64,000 bases of DNA from Thermoproteota archaeon (GCA_029258835.1 JAPDJY010000030.1:1-64000), one strand, 5' to 3'. Counted from the first letter of the stretch, positions 583 through 49,658 are shown. The notes: generated by a model from the letters alone, not told the origin. Translations and numbers: made by a program.

Positions 583-1836
583 ATGGGAAAGACGCTCGCT
601 GAAAAAATACTTAGCCTCGCCTCCAACAGCGACGTGTATAAAGGAGACATAGTGGTAGTCGAAGTAGACTTCGCTATGGCACAGGATGGAACGGCTCCCC
701 TAACTATTGAAGCGCTTGAAAGGATGGGCGTTGAAAAGGTTTGGAACCCAGAAAAGATAGTGTTGGTTATAGACCATAACGCTCCAAGCCCAAATGAAGG
801 CGTGTCAAGGATCCATAAGTTAATGAGGGAGTGGGCTGTCAGCCAGGGTGTAACGCTTTACGACGTTGGCGAAGGCGTTTGCCATCAATTAATGGTTGAA
901 CGTGGACATGTAAAGCCAGGAAGTGTTGTGCTTGGGGCAGACAGCCATACGTGCACGTACGGTGCACTAGGAGCTCTTGCAACAGGCATCGGCTCGACCG
1001 AGATGGCCGCAGTGTTTGCATGTGGACAGCTTTGGCTGCGGGTTCCGGAATCGCTTCTTATAAGCGTTGATGGAAAGCTTCCAAAAAGCGTATACGCAAA
1101 GGACCTTGCCTTAACAGTCATCGGCAAGATCGGAGCTGATGGAGCAACTTACATGGCTGTGGAGTACACTGGGGAAGCCATAAGCGAGCTAAGCGTGGAA
1201 GGAAGATTAACCCTTTGCAATATGGCGGTGGAGATGGGAGGTAAAACGGGGTTAATCGCTCCTGACGAGAAAGTTGTAGCTTTCCTTAACGAGTGTGGAG
1301 TACCTCAGAACTATCCCCTATTAAAAAGCGATGAAGATGCCGAGTTTAGCGCTAAGCTCGAATTGGATGCCAGCGACGTGGTGCCCGTCGTTGCGTGCCC
1401 TCACTCCGTCGATAACGTTAAGCCGGTATCAGACGTGGCGGGGGTGCCCGTGGATCAAGTTTTCATCGGAACCTGCACGAATGGGAGGATAGAGGACTTA
1501 AGAGTGGCTGGAAGAGTAATGAAGGGTAGAAAGGTTAGGGCGAGAACGATAATTGTTCCCGCCTCTAGGAACGTGTATCTTAAGGCTTTAAGGGAAGGCT
1601 TAATCGAAATATTTACCGAGGCAGGTGCAACCGTCTGCAACCCTGGATGCGGGCCGTGCGTCGGAACCCATCAGGGGATCCCCTCACCAGGAGATGTTGT
1701 GGTCTCAACAGCTAACAGAAACTTTAAAGGAAGAATGGGGTGTGATGAAGCTGAAATATACCTTGCTTCGCCTCACACGGCAGCTCTCGCCGCAGTGACC
1801 GGCGAGATAAGAGATCCGCGGGAGGATGCATCATGA
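583..1836 (+). CDS. leuC: 3-isopropylmalate dehydratase / homoaconitase large subunit
   Basis: GKTLAEKIL start; DHNAP, GADSHTCT, GTCTNGR, CGPCVG and TANRNFKGRMG aconitase-family motifs. ATG at 583 follows GAAGGTG. The leu versus hac specificity cannot be resolved. Confidence 0.9.
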   Translation: MGKTLAEKILSLASNSDVYKGDIVVVEVDFAMAQDGTAPLTIEALERMGVEKVWNPEKIVLVIDHNAPSPNEGVSRIHKLMREWAVSQGVTLYDVGEGVCHQLMVERGHVKPGSVVLGADSHTCTYGALGALATGIGSTEMAAVFACGQLWLRVPESLLISVDGKLPKSVYAKDLALTVIGKIGADGATYMAVEYTGEAISELSVEGRLTLCNMAVEMGGKTGLIAPDEKVVAFLNECGVPQNYPLLKSDEDAEFSAKLELDASDVVPVVACPHSVDNVKPVSDVAGVPVDQVFIGTCTNGRIEDLRVAGRVMKGRKVRARTIIVPASRNVYLKALREGLIEIFTEAGATVCNPGCGPCVGTHQGIPSPGDVVVSTANRNFKGRMGCDEAEIYLASPHTAALAAVTGEIRDPREDAS

Positions 1837-2366
1837 TCAAAGGTAGGGTTTGGAAGTTCCCCGACAACGTGAACACTGACTATATAATACCCGGCATGTG
1901 ACCGCTCTAGGCGGCGCCCGGAAAGTATAAGTTTAAGACGTTGAACATGGACGAATTAGCTAAACATGCCATGGAAGGCATCGACCCGGATTTTTCCAAG
2001 AAAGTCCAGAAAGGTGATATAATCGTCGCTGGGAAAAACTTTGGCTGCGGGTCGAGCAGGGAGCAAGCCCCCCTAGTTCTTAAGCATGCAGGAGTTTCCT
2101 TGGTCATTGCGGAAAGCTTTGCACGTATATTTTACCGTAACGCCTTCAACATAGGCCTCCCCCTTTTAATATGTAAAGAAGCCGTTGAGAATGTAGATGG
2201 AGGGGACATTTTAGAAGTCGACCTAACCACGGGGCGCATCACCAACTTAAGCAAGGGTAAAGAGTTTTATGCAAACCCGATCCCCGACTTCTTAATGGAG
2301 ATCGTTAAGGAAGGCGGCCTCTCAGAATACTACAAAAAGCATGGGCGGTTTCCATGGCAAAAGTAG
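1833..2366 (+). CDS. leuD: 3-isopropylmalate dehydratase small subunit, intron-containing: join(1833..1896,1924..2366), 168 aa
   Basis: ATGA overlap with the leuC stop. Reads [21 protein letters not shown]|KYKFKTL...[11 protein letters not shown]...[16 protein letters not shown]. The frame is blocked only by TGA and TAG inside a 27-nt BHB insert. Confidence 0.9.
1897..1923 (+). other. Predicted bulge-helix-bulge (BHB) intron in leuD mRNA (27 nt)
   Basis: ATAC|CCGG|CA^T|GTGACCGC-TCTAG-GCGGCGC|CCGG|AA^A|GTAT gives an exon helix, a 4-bp central helix, two 3-nt bulges and an intron hairpin. Splicing yields ATA CCC GGC AAG TAT (IPGKY). Confidence 0.85.
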
Positions 2367-3358
2367 GCTATATTGAAGGCGACGGAATAGGACATGAAAT
2401 CGTACCAGCAGCTATAAGAATTCTTAAAGAGGTAGCTCCACAGATAGAATTTATCCCGATTGAGGCCGGCTACGACTACATGAAAAGAACCGGCGCAAAT
2501 GTTCTCATACCTCCAGACTCGATCGAGGTTGCCGCATCATGCGACGCATTACTTAAAGGACCGACTACTACGCCGCCAGGACCAGGAATTCCGAAGGGCG
2601 TCGCCGTCGTTTTAAGGCAAGCATTAGACCTGTACGTGAACTTACGTCCCTTTCAGTACCCTAATAGGATGGACTTGATAATCGTAAGGGAAAACACTGA
2701 AGGTCTCTATAAGGGAATTGAGCACAGACTTACACCCAATGTTGCAATAGGTGTCAGGGTGATCACTAAGTTCAACTCTCAAAGGATCGCAGAGTATGCA
2801 TACCGGATGGCAAGCCAGAAGAAAAGGAAAAAGATAACGATAGTTCACAAGGCAAACGTTATGAAGGAAACCTGTGGCCTCTTTAGGGAAACGTGCCTAA
2901 GCGTTGCGTCAAAACACCCTAAACTGGAAACTGAGGAGATGCATGTGGACACCGCAGCCATGAACCTTGTCCTAAACCCCAAACGCTTCGATGTAATACT
3001 TACAACCAATATGTTCGGGGACATACTTTCAGACCTATGCGCTGGAATCGTTGGAAGCATAGGGCTCTGCCCGTCAGCCAACATAGGCGATAAACATGCA
3101 ATGTTTGAAGCCATTCACGGTAGTGCACCAGACATTGCAGGAAAAGGAATAGCGAATCCTACTGGGATAATCCTCGCCGCAGCCCTTATGTTAGATTATT
3201 TAGGTTACGTGAACGAGGCGGAAATGCTACGTAAGGCAACTCTGAATGTAGTAAATGAAGGTGTAAAGGTCACGCCAGACCTAGGCGGAACCGCGTCAAC
3301 AGAAGAAATGACGGGAGAAATACTGAAGAAATTACGTGAAATCCTTTCGCAACGATAA
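2354..3358 (+). CDS. leuB: Isocitrate/isopropylmalate dehydrogenase family protein (3-IPM or homoisocitrate dehydrogenase)
   Basis: [29 protein letters not shown] and [18 protein letters not shown] motifs; in an operon with leuCD. Confidence 0.85.
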
Positions 3359-3400
3359 AGATGCAGTTAATAATGAATGATGTTGGTGCGGCCGCCGGGA

Positions 3401-3426
3401 TGTTCGCCAGCTCAAACCTCGCTGGC
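3401..3426 (-). other. 26-nt BHB tRNA intron at T-loop position 59/60
   Basis: CCGGG|TTCG|AA^G|CCAGC-loop-GCTGG|CGAA|CA^T|CCCGG is a strict BHB; splicing restores GGGTTCGAATCCC. Confidence 0.9.
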
Positions 3427-3465
3427 TTCGAACCCGGGTCTCAGGCTTGGAGGGCCTGGATCCTA

Positions 3466-3483
3466 TTCCAGCCCAGAACTGGC
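3466..3483 (-). other. 18-nt relaxed-BHB tRNA intron in the D-loop
   Basis: CTGG|AC^G...CTGG|AA^T with a central helix containing two G-U pairs. Removal gives the typical D-loop AGTCTGGACTA. Exact boundaries are less certain. Confidence 0.7.
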
Positions 3484-3584
3484 GTCCAGACTAGACTACG
3501 GCCGCCGCACCTTTAAGCTGTCATCATTTTCTCAACACTTATTTTTATTGTTTTTGCTTTGCCTCCCCTCGAAGGGGGCTTGAA

Positions 3585-6420: not shown

Positions 6421-7358
6421 ATGCTGTGGCTATACGTGGTCTCAGAAAGGTTTTCGGTCGCTTCGTCGCTTTGCACGAGGTAAACCTTGAAGTCCCTGAG
6501 GGAGTATGCTTTGGTTTTTTAGGTCCTAACGGATCAGGGAAGACTACTACGATAAAAATCATACTTGGACTGTTAGAACCCGATGGTGGCGAAGTCTACG
6601 TGTTTGGTAGAAAAGCTGGTAGCTACGAAGTTAGGAGGAGGATAGGTTACCTGCCTGAAAGAATAGAGTACCACAATCATGTTTTATGTGTAGACTTCTT
6701 AAAGTATGTTGGAATTCTCAACCATATGAAACCATCTAAAGCTGAAAGAACTGCCAGAGACATCCTTGTATGGGTCGGCCTTGAAGGGTGGGAAGACCAG
6801 CCAATAGGGACGCTAAGCGCTGGCATGAAGCAGAGGCTTGGCCTCGCTCAGGCGTTAATGGGCGATCCTGATCTGATAATTCTCGACGAGCCTACATCAA
6901 ATTTGGATCCGATAGGGAGAAAAGAAATTTTAGATAAAGTTAAGGAGCTTGCCAGCGAAGGAAAGACTATTTTCTTTTCGAGCCACATCCTTTCAGAGGT
7001 TGAAACTGTAAGCGACTATGTCGGAATAATATTCCATGGTAGGACCATTAAGCAAGGCCGCCTCCACGATATAAAGCGAGAGTTGACCCGCAGGAAGGCG
7101 GAAAAGTACGAGCTGGTGGTTGACAAGACAAGTGAGGTGCTTTCCATTCTAACCGAAAAAGGCGTGGAAGCACACGCTGAGGGCGACCATATAATAATGT
7201 TCACCTCGAATCCTGAGTTTCTTGAAAGGCTTATCCCTAAGGTCTTAGTTGACGCTGACGCTCAGCTAATGAAGTTTACCCCTGTCGGTGACACCCTCCA
7301 AGAAGTCTTCCTACAGTTAGTTTCAGAAGTTTCTTTGGAGGAGGGGGAAAGTGGTTGA
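6417..7358 (+). CDS. ABC-2 type transporter ATP-binding protein
   Basis: Walker A GPNGSGKT, signature LSAGMKQR, Walker B ILDEP, H-loop SSH. Confidence 0.93.
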   Translation: MNAVAIRGLRKVFGRFVALHEVNLEVPEGVCFGFLGPNGSGKTTTIKIILGLLEPDGGEVYVFGRKAGSYEVRRRIGYLPERIEYHNHVLCVDFLKYVGILNHMKPSKAERTARDILVWVGLEGWEDQPIGTLSAGMKQRLGLAQALMGDPDLIILDEPTSNLDPIGRKEILDKVKELASEGKTIFFSSHILSEVETVSDYVGIIFHGRTIKQGRLHDIKRELTRRKAEKYELVVDKTSEVLSILTEKGVEAHAEGDHIIMFTSNPEFLERLIPKVLVDADAQLMKFTPVGDTLQEVFLQLVSEVSLEEGESG

Positions 7359-20406: not shown

Positions 20407-21846
20407 TTATAATCCTAATTTTCCCGGATTCATTATGTTATTCGGGTCAAGTACACGTTTAATCTTCTTTAGCACGTTAAACGCCTCGCCGTGCTCTTTA
20501 TGCATCCATCCCGCCCTTACGATCCCGATCCCATGGTGATGGCTTATTGAGCCACCAGCCTTAAGGCATGCATCAAGTGCATCTCTCCAAGCAGAACTGT
20601 AAACCTCTAAGGCTTTCTCAGGATCCTGCTGCTGGGTGAAGAAAATCATGTAGATGGAGCCTCCATCCTCGTAGAAATGGGAGAAGTGCGCCATCATGGT
20701 CACTCCTGGATTTTTCCTCTCTACAGCCTCCTTGACCGTCCAGTAAAGCTTCTCCAGCCTGTCGTATGGAGCGGCCACATCTACCGTGTCAGCGATTATC
20801 CCGTAAGCTGACCTGAACGGGTCAGGGTAATACATGTCATACCTATGATTCCACCAGTGCTCCGCCAGCTCTTTTTCAACTTCGACGCCGCCCTCCTCCA
20901 AGCATACTTGGGTCGCTACTTTCTCCTCTACTTCCACCATTTCCTTCATCCCGTCAAATGCCAGTATGAGGTAGGATCCTCCTTCTGGAAGCTCGGCCCT
21001 ACCCTTAAGAGTGAACTGTGCATCAAGGTAGTCATAAAGTCTTATGACGCATGGTCTTAACCCTTTACGGAAAAGTTTGATAACTGCTTCTATTCCTGAA
21101 TGAAGATCCTTGAATATGAACGCCCTAAACCTCCTCTCCTCAGGGAGAGGCTTTATCTTCAACGTCACCTCAGTTATTATTCCAAGTGTTCCCTCGGATC
21201 CTATAAAAAGCTGCTTCAAATCCGGACCTGTTGCTGATCGAGGCACGGGCTTAGTTCTTATAATCTCTCCTGTTGGCAAGACGACTTCAAGCGCTACCAC
21301 CATATCCTCTATTTTTCCATACTTTGACGAGAGGGACCCGGCAGACCGGCAGGCAACAAATCCGCCTATCGTTGAACAGTAGAGGGAGGCTGGATAATGC
21401 GGCAAGGTGTAACCCTGCTTGTTTAGCTCTTTCTCCAACACTTCACCTATTATCCCTGGCTGGACCGTTACTAAAAGAGACTTATGATCTATACTGACAA
21501 TTTTATCCATTTTTTTGAGGTCTATTATTATTCCACCGTTAACAGGTATGGTTCCTCCGCAGACGCCAGCTCCTCCACCAAACGGTATTAATGGTATCTT
21601 AAGCATATTCGCAAGTTTAACTATCTCTGAGACTTGCTCGGCGTTTTCCGGATGAACTATAAAATCTGGCTCAGGAAGAAATTCCTTCTTTTTTATCCAG
21701 ATAGCAGTCAACGGCCAAGCATCTCTAGAATAACATACTATGTCTGCAACATCAGCATAGACGTTTCCCTCCCCCACAATTCTAACCAGTTCATTGTAAA
21801 CCATCTCTCTCCAGAAACTATTCCGGCCAGGCATGTTTCGCTCCAC
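20407..21846 (-). CDS. FAD-binding oxidoreductase, alkyl-dihydroxyacetonephosphate synthase-like
   Basis: PFGGGAGVCGG, HYPAS..STIGG, SSKYGKIED, PRSATGPDL, GSEGTLG and SHHHGIG motifs (VAO/AGPS family). Confidence 0.85.
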   Translation of the reverse strand: MERNMPGRNSFWREMVYNELVRIVGEGNVYADVADIVCYSRDAWPLTAIWIKKKEFLPEPDFIVHPENAEQVSEIVKLANMLKIPLIPFGGGAGVCGGTIPVNGGIIIDLKKMDKIVSIDHKSLLVTVQPGIIGEVLEKELNKQGYTLPHYPASLYCSTIGGFVACRSAGSLSSKYGKIEDMVVALEVVLPTGEIIRTKPVPRSATGPDLKQLFIGSEGTLGIITEVTLKIKPLPEERRFRAFIFKDLHSGIEAVIKLFRKGLRPCVIRLYDYLDAQFTLKGRAELPEGGSYLILAFDGMKEMVEVEEKVATQVCLEEGGVEVEKELAEHWWNHRYDMYYPDPFRSAYGIIADTVDVAAPYDRLEKLYWTVKEAVERKNPGVTMMAHFSHFYEDGGSIYMIFFTQQQDPEKALEVYSSAWRDALDACLKAGGSISHHHGIGIVRAGWMHKEHGEAFNVLKKIKRVLDPNNIMNPGKLGL

Positions 21847-48578: not shown

Positions 48579-49658
48579 GTGGGGAGAATCAAGGTGGCTA
48601 TTGCAGGCCTTGGCAACTGCGCGTCCGCACTCATTCAAGGAGTATATTATTATAAAGATGCTAAGGAGGGCGACCAGATCCCAGGGTTAATGCACGTAAA
48701 CTTTGGAGGGTATTACCCACGTGACCTAGAATTCGTGTGTGCATTCGATGTTAACAGGAATAAGATAGGACGCGACATAAGCGAAGCTATATTCGCTGAG
48801 CCAAATTGCGTCCCAAAGTTTGCGGATGTTCCAAAGCTAGGTGTCGAGGTGCTGCCAGGGCCGATCTCAGACGGCGTAGCCCCTCACATGGTGGAGCCAT
48901 TCTACACGTACGACCGGAGCAGGATGGAGGCTGTCGACGTGGCGTCAGCACTCCAAGATTCTGGAGCAGAGATCTTAGTAAACTTTATTCCAGTTGGCAG
49001 CTACGAGGCGACTAGAATCTACGCGCAAGCAGCCTTAGATTCTGGTTGCGCTTTCGTCAATTGCATTCCAGAGTTCATAGCGTCAGATCCGGAATGGGCC
49101 AAAAAATTTGAGCAAGCAAACGTTCCAATTGCTGGAGATGACATAAAGAGCCAGATAGGCGCCACGATCCTTCACAGGACCATAGTAGATCTCCTGATAA
49201 GCAGGGGTGTAAAAATCGAAAGCACATACCAGTTGAACATAGGCGGCAACACGGACTTCCTTAACATGACCGTGGAGGAACGATTAAAAACGAAAAGGAT
49301 AAGTAAGACTGAAGCCGTAACAAGCCTCGCACCATACGAATTTCCTGTCAGAATAGGGCCATCCGACTACGTCCCATTCCTAGGCGATAAGAAGGTCTGC
49401 TACATAAGAGTTGAAGGCAAGAAGTTTGGAGACCGACCAGTAACGATCGATGTAAAACTTGTGGTCGACGATTCCCCTAATAGTGCAGGAGTCGTAATAG
49501 ATGTTGTAAGGGCGGTAAAGCTCGCCTTAGACAGAGGCGTGTCAGGACCCCTAACGAGCATATCCGCATACGCATTTAAGCATCCACCAGTACAAGTACC
49601 AGACCATGTAGCCCGCCGGTGGGTTGAAGAATTCATAGAGGGCAAAAGAGAACGCTAA
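48579..49658 (+). CDS. ino1: Inositol-3-phosphate synthase
   Basis: GLGNCAS, GDDIKSQIGAT, QLNIGGNTDF and DSPNSAG motifs. Confidence 0.94.
   Translation: MGRIKVAIAGLGNCASALIQGVYYYKDAKEGDQIPGLMHVNFGGYYPRDLEFVCAFDVNRNKIGRDISEAIFAEPNCVPKFADVPKLGVEVLPGPISDGVAPHMVEPFYTYDRSRMEAVDVASALQDSGAEILVNFIPVGSYEATRIYAQAALDSGCAFVNCIPEFIASDPEWAKKFEQANVPIAGDDIKSQIGATILHRTIVDLLISRGVKIESTYQLNIGGNTDFLNMTVEERLKTKRISKTEAVTSLAPYEFPVRIGPSDYVPFLGDKKVCYIRVEGKKFGDRPVTIDVKLVVDDSPNSAGVVIDVVRAVKLALDRGVSGPLTSISAYAFKHPPVQVPDHVARRWVEEFIEGKRER

Follow-up and report, generated by a model that had tools for sequence, protein, structure and literature searches.

A predicted bulge-helix-bulge intron interrupts a LeuD-family gene in a Jordarchaeia (Asgard) archaeon

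The stretch of DNA analysed here (the window; contig C2:1-64000, 64,000 nt) belongs to a genome of 2.72 Mb in 91 contigs (G000), and it carries a cluster of three metabolic genes: the large subunit of an aconitase-type dehydratase, a small subunit of the LeuD/HacB family spanning 1833-2366, and a dehydrogenase (Table 1). We found that the small-subunit gene is interrupted by 27 nt (1897-1923), which very probably form an intron of the bulge-helix-bulge (BHB) type, the archaeal tRNA type, in its pre-mRNA. The organism is an Asgard archaeon whose best named relative is Candidatus Jordarchaeia archaeon QC4, of a class called Jordarchaeia or Freyarchaeia (PMC11291895). An initial annotation, made from the sequence alone, had proposed such an intron in a gene that it named leuD, in a lineage that it took to be probably Asgard; the lineage was correctly guessed.

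The frame containing the large-subunit gene is open from 532 to 1836, where its stop codon ends, and the ATG of the small subunit at 1833 overlaps that stop (ATGA), so that the small subunit is translationally coupled. Past exon 1 the unspliced frame reads M*PL*AAPG and then KYKFKTL..., and downstream of the insert it stays open to 2366; the list of open reading frames (ORFs) resumes only after the insert, at TTG 1941. Thus the coupled start, the two stops in an otherwise intact gene and the truncation of the gene at 1941 were all as first described. The match of exon 2 to TIGR02087, the profile of LeuD/DmdB-family small subunits, runs from position 22 to 156 of its 157 and lacks precisely the 21-residue stretch encoded by exon 1, and the closest solved homologue is the small subunit of the M. 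jannaschii isopropylmalate/citramalate isomerase (3vba). The name fared less well than the family assignment: leuD, which we keep as a label for 1833-2366, is likely but not proven, because exon 2 alone scores below the equivalog cut-offs for both leuD and HacB. Two further LeuD-family genes lie elsewhere in the genome (contigs C15 and C33; 58% and 45% identical), and these are paralogues rather than spare copies.

Table 1. Features of the leuD locus and of its predicted junction fold, followed by loci elsewhere in the genome (positions refer to the window unless another locus or contig is named)
Feature	Position	Strand	Basis
Large subunit, HacA/IPMI-family aconitase-type dehydratase	583-1836	+	TIGR01343 605 bits, TIGR02086 575 bits, both above cut-off
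Exon 1, LeuD/HacB-family small subunit	1833-1896	+	21 codons plus first base (A) of a Lys codon; conserved in 11 genomes
Predicted BHB intron, 27 nt, phase 1	1897-1923	+	In-frame TGA 1899-1901 and TAG 1908-1910; recovered blind against the intronless G006 orthologue
Exon 2	1924-2366	+	AG of the Lys codon, then YKFKTL...FPWQK; stop 2364-2366; TIGR02087 match; 3vba 2e-48
Isopropylmalate/isohomocitrate-type dehydrogenase, third gene of the cluster	2354-3358	+	TIGR02088 393.7 bits, just below the 409.8 cut-off
Outer helix h	1887-1890 (AUAC, 5′ strand), pairing with 1925-1928 (GUAU)	+	RNAfold, five-genome comparison
Central 4-bp helix H, 5′ strand CCGG (exon)	1891-1894, pairing with 1918-1921	+	95% of cells paired over five genomes
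Central helix H, 3′ strand CCGG (intron)	1918-1921	+	RNAfold
5′ bulge CAU	1895-1897; predicted cut 1896/1897	+	RNAfold, cut rule
3′ bulge AAA	1922-1924; predicted cut 1923/1924	+	RNAfold, cut rule
Intron-internal hairpin h′, GUG(A)CCGC / loop UCUAG / GCGGCGC	1898-1917	+	RNAfold; pairs in all five genomes
Predicted EF-1alpha intron, 43 nt	L113:2735-2777 (G000:C27)	-	
Predicted aIF2gamma intron, 30 nt	G000:C27 minus-strand index 6963-6992	-	
Predicted cbf5 intron, 27 nt	L222 (G000:C27:11929-11955)	+	
EndA-family gene	L119:1210-1779		
EndA-family gene	L120:862-1785		

For the junction itself (1880-1935), the minimum-energy structure returned by RNAfold is a strict hBHBh′ motif, with the helices, bulges and hairpin that the initial annotation had described as a textbook BHB. 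Each bulge sits 3′ of its central-helix strand, as the bulges do in tRNA substrates of the BHB type, which the splicing endonuclease EndA cleaves between the second and third base of each 3-nt bulge. Excising 1897-1923 by this rule re-forms a Lys codon (A·AG, joints being marked here by a centred dot) and gives a 168-aa protein that reads IIPGKYKF, so the in-frame IIPGKY anticipated for the spliced product is recovered. The predicted spliced joint, 1896-1924, is ...ATACCCGGCA·AGTATAAG..., and the cut rule from which it follows agrees with a joint found in RNA for another gene, EF-1alpha (below).

The initial annotation had suggested aligning leuD from relatives, and our comparison covered 11 genomes of Jordarchaeia, five in the window's family and six in a sister family. 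An insert stands at the same codon in all five family genomes (27 nt in G000, 29 nt in G001, 29 nt in G002, 27 nt in G003 and 25 nt in G004) and shifts the frame in three of them; one cut rule restores the same conserved protein stretch in every case, identical to that of the six insert-free sister-family orthologues. The insert was absent from all six sister-family genomes, as well as from about 150 more distant LeuD loci in genomes and metagenomes, all of which read straight through. By parsimony, the intron was gained in the ancestor of the window's family after the split from the sister family, and it has been kept since before a genus-level split. A scan of metagenome contigs for more variants of the leuD intron returned nothing closer than 64% identity.

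Across the five family genomes, the inner hairpins (GUG(A)CCGC, GUAGCCUGA, GUAGC, GGU(A)GCCG and GUAGCC(U)CGC) vary in sequence and length, yet all of them pair, over 5-9 bp in every genome and with 100% of inner-helix cells paired. The outer helix has 3-4 bp in G000-G003 and is mismatched at its second pair in G004, and the central helix is perfect in four of the five. Among alignable pairs, 90.9% of cells were paired as compared with 18-47% when the partners were slid, and compensatory double changes were present at two inner-helix pairs; these counts come from five related genomes, which overstates their independence, and the figures are indicative rather than a test.

The five intron-bearing genes have diverged nearly to saturation at synonymous sites (pS 0.46-0.81) with little nonsynonymous change (pN 0.04-0.12), giving omega values of 0.04-0.07 where computable, and exon 1 alone shows the same pattern (pS 0.3-0.95 versus pN 0.02-0.06). 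No additional stop or frameshift was present in any of the five. The constraint on exon 1, together with this lack of other lesions, argues that translation has read exon 1 in the joined frame for as long as the intron has existed. Splicing would be obligatory for the full-length LeuD-family protein.

The leuD intron appears to be one of several BHB introns in the protein genes of this genome. For EF-1alpha, only one match was above the family cut-off, and it starts at profile position 19; upstream of it lie MSASKPHLNLVVIGHVDHG and a 43-nt insert that splits GHVDHG·KST and folds with a central helix CGGC/GCCG, bulges AAU and AAG and a 10-bp hairpin, and the cut rule restores GHVDHGKSTLMGHLL. 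In the aIF2gamma gene, 30 nt interrupt the homologous P-loop codon (GHVDHG·KTT), and the rule restores GHVDHGKTTLV. In cbf5, a full-length family match contains two internal stops, and a 27-nt BHB insert splits the codon of the catalytic Asp (GTL·DPK), with GHAGTLDPKVTGVLPV restored on excision. All three are single-copy genes, and all three inserts follow the cut rule of leuD. The same rule applies to a tRNA gene 1 kb downstream of leuD: tRNA-Gly(TCC), at about 3384-3505 of the window on the minus strand, contains BHB segments of 18 and 26 nt and is recognised by ARAGORN only after both have been removed. Neither ARAGORN nor Rfam found a tRNA in the unspliced 64-kb window, because the tRNA there is interrupted.

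A trace of such removal was seen at the RNA level for EF-1alpha. Parts of this gene occur in three metatranscriptome runs from a single marine-sediment sample. One assembled metatranscriptome contig, 251 nt long at a depth of 2.49 (X24 record 6), joins position 2734 of L113 to 2778, so that the 43 bases it skips are exactly the predicted intron. The joint fits three equivalent registers, and 130 nt from it, where the sequence is conserved, the contig shows clustered mismatches. A second RNA-library contig (X25 record 10), which has a single mismatch over 303 nt, retains the intron and is either pre-mRNA or DNA carry-over. For EF-1alpha only, and not for leuD, the X24 contig directly supports the mechanism in this organism or population. 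Taken with the inserts in EF-1alpha, aIF2gamma and cbf5, it upholds the earlier proposal that this lineage uses tRNA-splicing machinery on mRNAs.

We also noted some likenesses among the insertion sites. The EF-1alpha and aIF2gamma introns occupy the homologous P-loop codon (GHVDHG·K) of paralogous GTPases, and both have a central helix CGGC/GCCG and a 5′ bulge AAU; exon 1 of leuD likewise ends in GGCA. These likenesses may point to a preference for the same kind of target or to common descent. At leuD, direct repeats flank the intron (CCCGG at 1890-1894 and 1917-1921 in G000; TACCYGGAA in G001 and G003), because the central helix is palindromic and the motif pseudo-symmetric. Such repeats could hint at insertion with target duplication; EF-1alpha, with its CGGC/GCCG helix, has no such repeat.

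Inserts were also sought without reference to the motif, using ORFs from 400 kb of a closed sister-family genome (G006) as tblastn probes, which gave 207 orthologue pairs. This comparison recovered leuD blind; its other hits were aIF2gamma, a 15-nt case that is ambiguous and a gene boundary. About 1% of the genes in these pairs carry an insert that is absent from the sister family. The ambiguous case, an in-frame insert containing TAA on contig C12 (plus strand, index 49141-49155), is a possible mini-intron with a weak BHB (central helix AUCC/GGGU, flanking helices almost nil). A 33-nt case on contig C38 was rejected as an intron, being a gene boundary with a ribosome-binding site and a start codon. 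Frame-split matches detected from pairs of tblastn high-scoring segments were likewise rejected, as none was a BHB intron, and the method misses short exons. The whole-genome scan for ORFs repaired by BHB excision that the initial annotation had recommended proved uninformative: a de novo census, in which a strict BHB and frame repair were followed by a hexamer coding score, gave equal counts for the true motif and for a mirror-geometry control (e.g. 213 versus 213), the causes being operon junctions and the fact that any excision of the same length near a real insert restores the frame as well. Both leuD and EF-1alpha fell outside the cut-offs of this census, and no genome-wide number of introns follows from it. 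One of the frame-split matches falls in a Bud32-like kinase gene (contig C27, about 21050-21052, minus strand) and is a plain frameshift, with about 2 nt missing at HGDLTT·NMIL and no BHB; recoding, a pseudogene or an error in sequencing could each account for it.

Several observations weigh against an intron in leuD. No RNA run is listed as containing the gene, which says nothing about its expression, and the RNA support from EF-1alpha amounts to one low-depth assembled contig; no DNA contig from the sample of that contig spans the EF-1alpha site, where a co-occurring intronless strain is possible. The intron begins only 64 nt past a coupled start, and the timing of splicing relative to coupled translation is unexplained. 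In G002 the central helix is relaxed, with three of its four pairs formed, and the relatedness of the five genomes discounts the pairing figures given above. The fold energy of the junction is unexceptional (z = -1.5; 14 of 200 shuffles fold equally well). The rare property of the motif is its geometry and not its fold energy, the strict form occurring at about 8e-5 per position and length in the genome (22,147 matches over both strands and 51 lengths).

Among the alternatives, ribosomal bypassing like that of T4 gene 60 would leave the mRNA unspliced, with take-off at the Gly codon before the insert and landing on GGA at its end. A hop needs no length divisible by three, the insert is bracketed by CCCGG...CCCGG, GGN occurs just before the insert and near its end in all five genomes, and the hairpin and nearby stops come after the take-off site. 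We nevertheless consider bypassing very unlikely: in G002 and G004 a ribosome landing on GGA would make G-E-Y, although G-K-Y is invariant in 11 of 11 orthologues, the bracketing repeat arises from the palindrome in the central helix, and what is conserved is BHB geometry and no bypass signal. Moreover, take-off and landing codons that match are lacking in EF-1alpha, aIF2gamma and cbf5, and at the RNA level the insert of EF-1alpha is gone. Just as improbable is split expression, in which exon 2 would be made alone from TTG 1941 or ATG 1947, exon 1 would yield a peptide of at most 22 aa and the insert would simply be tolerated. Purifying selection on exon 1 equals that on exon 2, in the frame joined by the cut rule, the family profile needs the first 21 positions, and the conserved IIPGKY motif would be lost. 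Split expression also gives no reason to keep the BHB shape while the hairpin sequence turns over. In its favour are a possible start at 1941 in the ORF list and the two other LeuD-family paralogues.

Pseudogene decay and an assembly artefact had both been raised in the initial annotation as findings that would overturn it. A pseudogene shared by the family, in which this copy was inactivated by an ancient insertion and its function passed to the paralogues, would fit the in-frame stops or frameshifts in all five genomes and the LeuD-family genes on C15 and C33, and yet we hold it slightly less probable still: omega remains at 0.04-0.07 at near-saturated synonymous sites with no other lesion in five genes, the operon is intact with its coupled start, the paralogues are only 45-58% identical, and inserts of this kind also sit in essential genes that are single-copy. 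The selection figures contradict a pseudogene. We give almost no credence to an assembly or sequencing artefact, or to read-through (recoding) of the in-frame TGA and TAG. The insert is present in five genomes, including the separately named public record QC4, and the stretch is listed in DNA runs from 19 studies (by listing, not by read alignment). Read-through could keep the frame in G000 and G003, whose inserts are multiples of three, whereas the 25- and 29-nt lengths in the other three genomes rule this out. Two other kinds of intervening element were rejected outright: a group I or group II self-splicing intron, since the insert is 27 nt as against a ribozyme core of hundreds of nucleotides and Rfam gave nothing at its gathering threshold in the whole window, and an intein, since the insert spans only nine codons, contains two stops and breaks the frame in three genomes.

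For a BHB intron in leuD, the operon would be transcribed with the insert, and the exon-intron junctions would fold into the hBHBh′ that is predicted in silico and conserved in five genomes. A two-subunit EndA would then cut after the second base of each 3-nt bulge, a rule whose product was seen in RNA for EF-1alpha in the same organism or population, and the ligase RtcB would join the exons. The genome encodes two EndA-family proteins (190 and 308 aa), both of which have an N-terminal and a catalytic domain; among solved structures the best match is 5x89, the alpha-beta enzyme of M. kandleri. One RtcB gene (607 bits) is also present. The 308-aa protein also bears an N-terminal extension of about 135 aa without a Pfam match. 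Asgard EndA has been reported as a broad-specificity (alpha-beta)2 enzyme with an L1 loop, a type that accepts relaxed motifs (PMC5829648). The initial annotation had further suggested that splicing could be regulatory, like that of HAC1/XBP1; nothing supports regulation, and the idea is pure speculation.

A pre-mRNA intron in crenarchaeal cbf5 was reportedly described by Watanabe in 2002 and Yoshinari in 2006. Like leuD, cbf5 of the Crenarchaeota (Desulfurococcales, Sulfolobales; Yokobori 2009, PMC2738675) has a short coding-sequence intron with a BHB at its junctions, removed by the tRNA splicing endonuclease and ligase in lineages with hetero-oligomeric EndA and subject to lineage-specific gain and loss. 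In contrast, leuD encodes a subunit of a metabolic dehydratase rather than an RNA-modification enzyme, belongs to the Asgard class Jordarchaeia, is predicted to be spliced, and appears to be one of several interrupted protein genes, including EF-1alpha, aIF2gamma and the organism's own cbf5. As of 2020, cbf5 was stated to be the only example of BHB introns inside archaeal coding sequences (PMC7714728), and introns in other archaeal protein genes had been predicted but not confirmed (PMC2738675). Our literature search, whose scope left subscription journals largely outside, found coding-sequence BHB introns reported only for cbf5 of Crenarchaeota and nothing newer on protein genes. Mechanistically, the leuD intron is of the cbf5 kind; what makes it notable is the lineage, the type of gene and its being one of several.

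Closer in lineage are the non-canonical BHB introns of tRNA genes, which are heavily interrupted in Freyarchaeia/Jordarchaeia and Atabeyarchaeia (PMC11291895; 2026 preprint, bioRxiv 10.64898/2026.10.13.758758); as far as searched, these Freyarchaeia/Atabeyarchaeia and Asgard tRNA-intron papers make no mention of introns in protein genes. The leuD intron shares with the tRNA introns of Freyarchaeia/Jordarchaeia its motif, cut rule, size range and lineage, whereas its host RNA is an mRNA that is also read by ribosomes, and the exon half of its motif is constrained by codons and not by tRNA structure. Haloferax volcanii HVO_1309 carries a BHB intron in its 5′ untranslated region (PMC7714728) and is likewise an EndA substrate within an mRNA, but that intron lies in an untranslated leader and interrupts no reading frame, while that of leuD lies in coding sequence. 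Eukaryotic IRE1/RtcB splicing of HAC1/XBP1 is similar in its use of a protein endonuclease at two RNA elements and an RtcB-type ligase, in changing the frame and in needing no spliceosome. It differs in its nuclease and recognition element and in being regulated by stress; leuD is not a member of that system, and no IRE1-type element was shown.

A broader proposal, that a genome-wide population of BHB mini-introns, perhaps tens of them, lies in Jordarchaeia mRNAs, including those of essential translation factors, and that their removal is required and possibly rate-limiting, seems to us rather unlikely. Were it true, an archaeon closely related to eukaryotes would have to hold translation back until its RNAs were processed, and EndA/RtcB activity could gate metabolism, as HAC1/XBP1 splicing does. 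Annotation pipelines call genes interrupted as leuD is pseudogenes, or truncate them, so that metabolic reconstructions of Asgard archaea would miss intact pathways. In this Asgard lineage, an ordinary metabolic gene as well as EF-1alpha, aIF2gamma and cbf5 would be interrupted by introns of the EndA/RtcB-spliced type, with a first RNA-level trace of exact removal, and this raises the testable question of how splicing is coordinated with coupled translation. Thus, a prokaryote related to the eukaryotic ancestor would both tolerate and depend on the removal of introns from its mRNAs.

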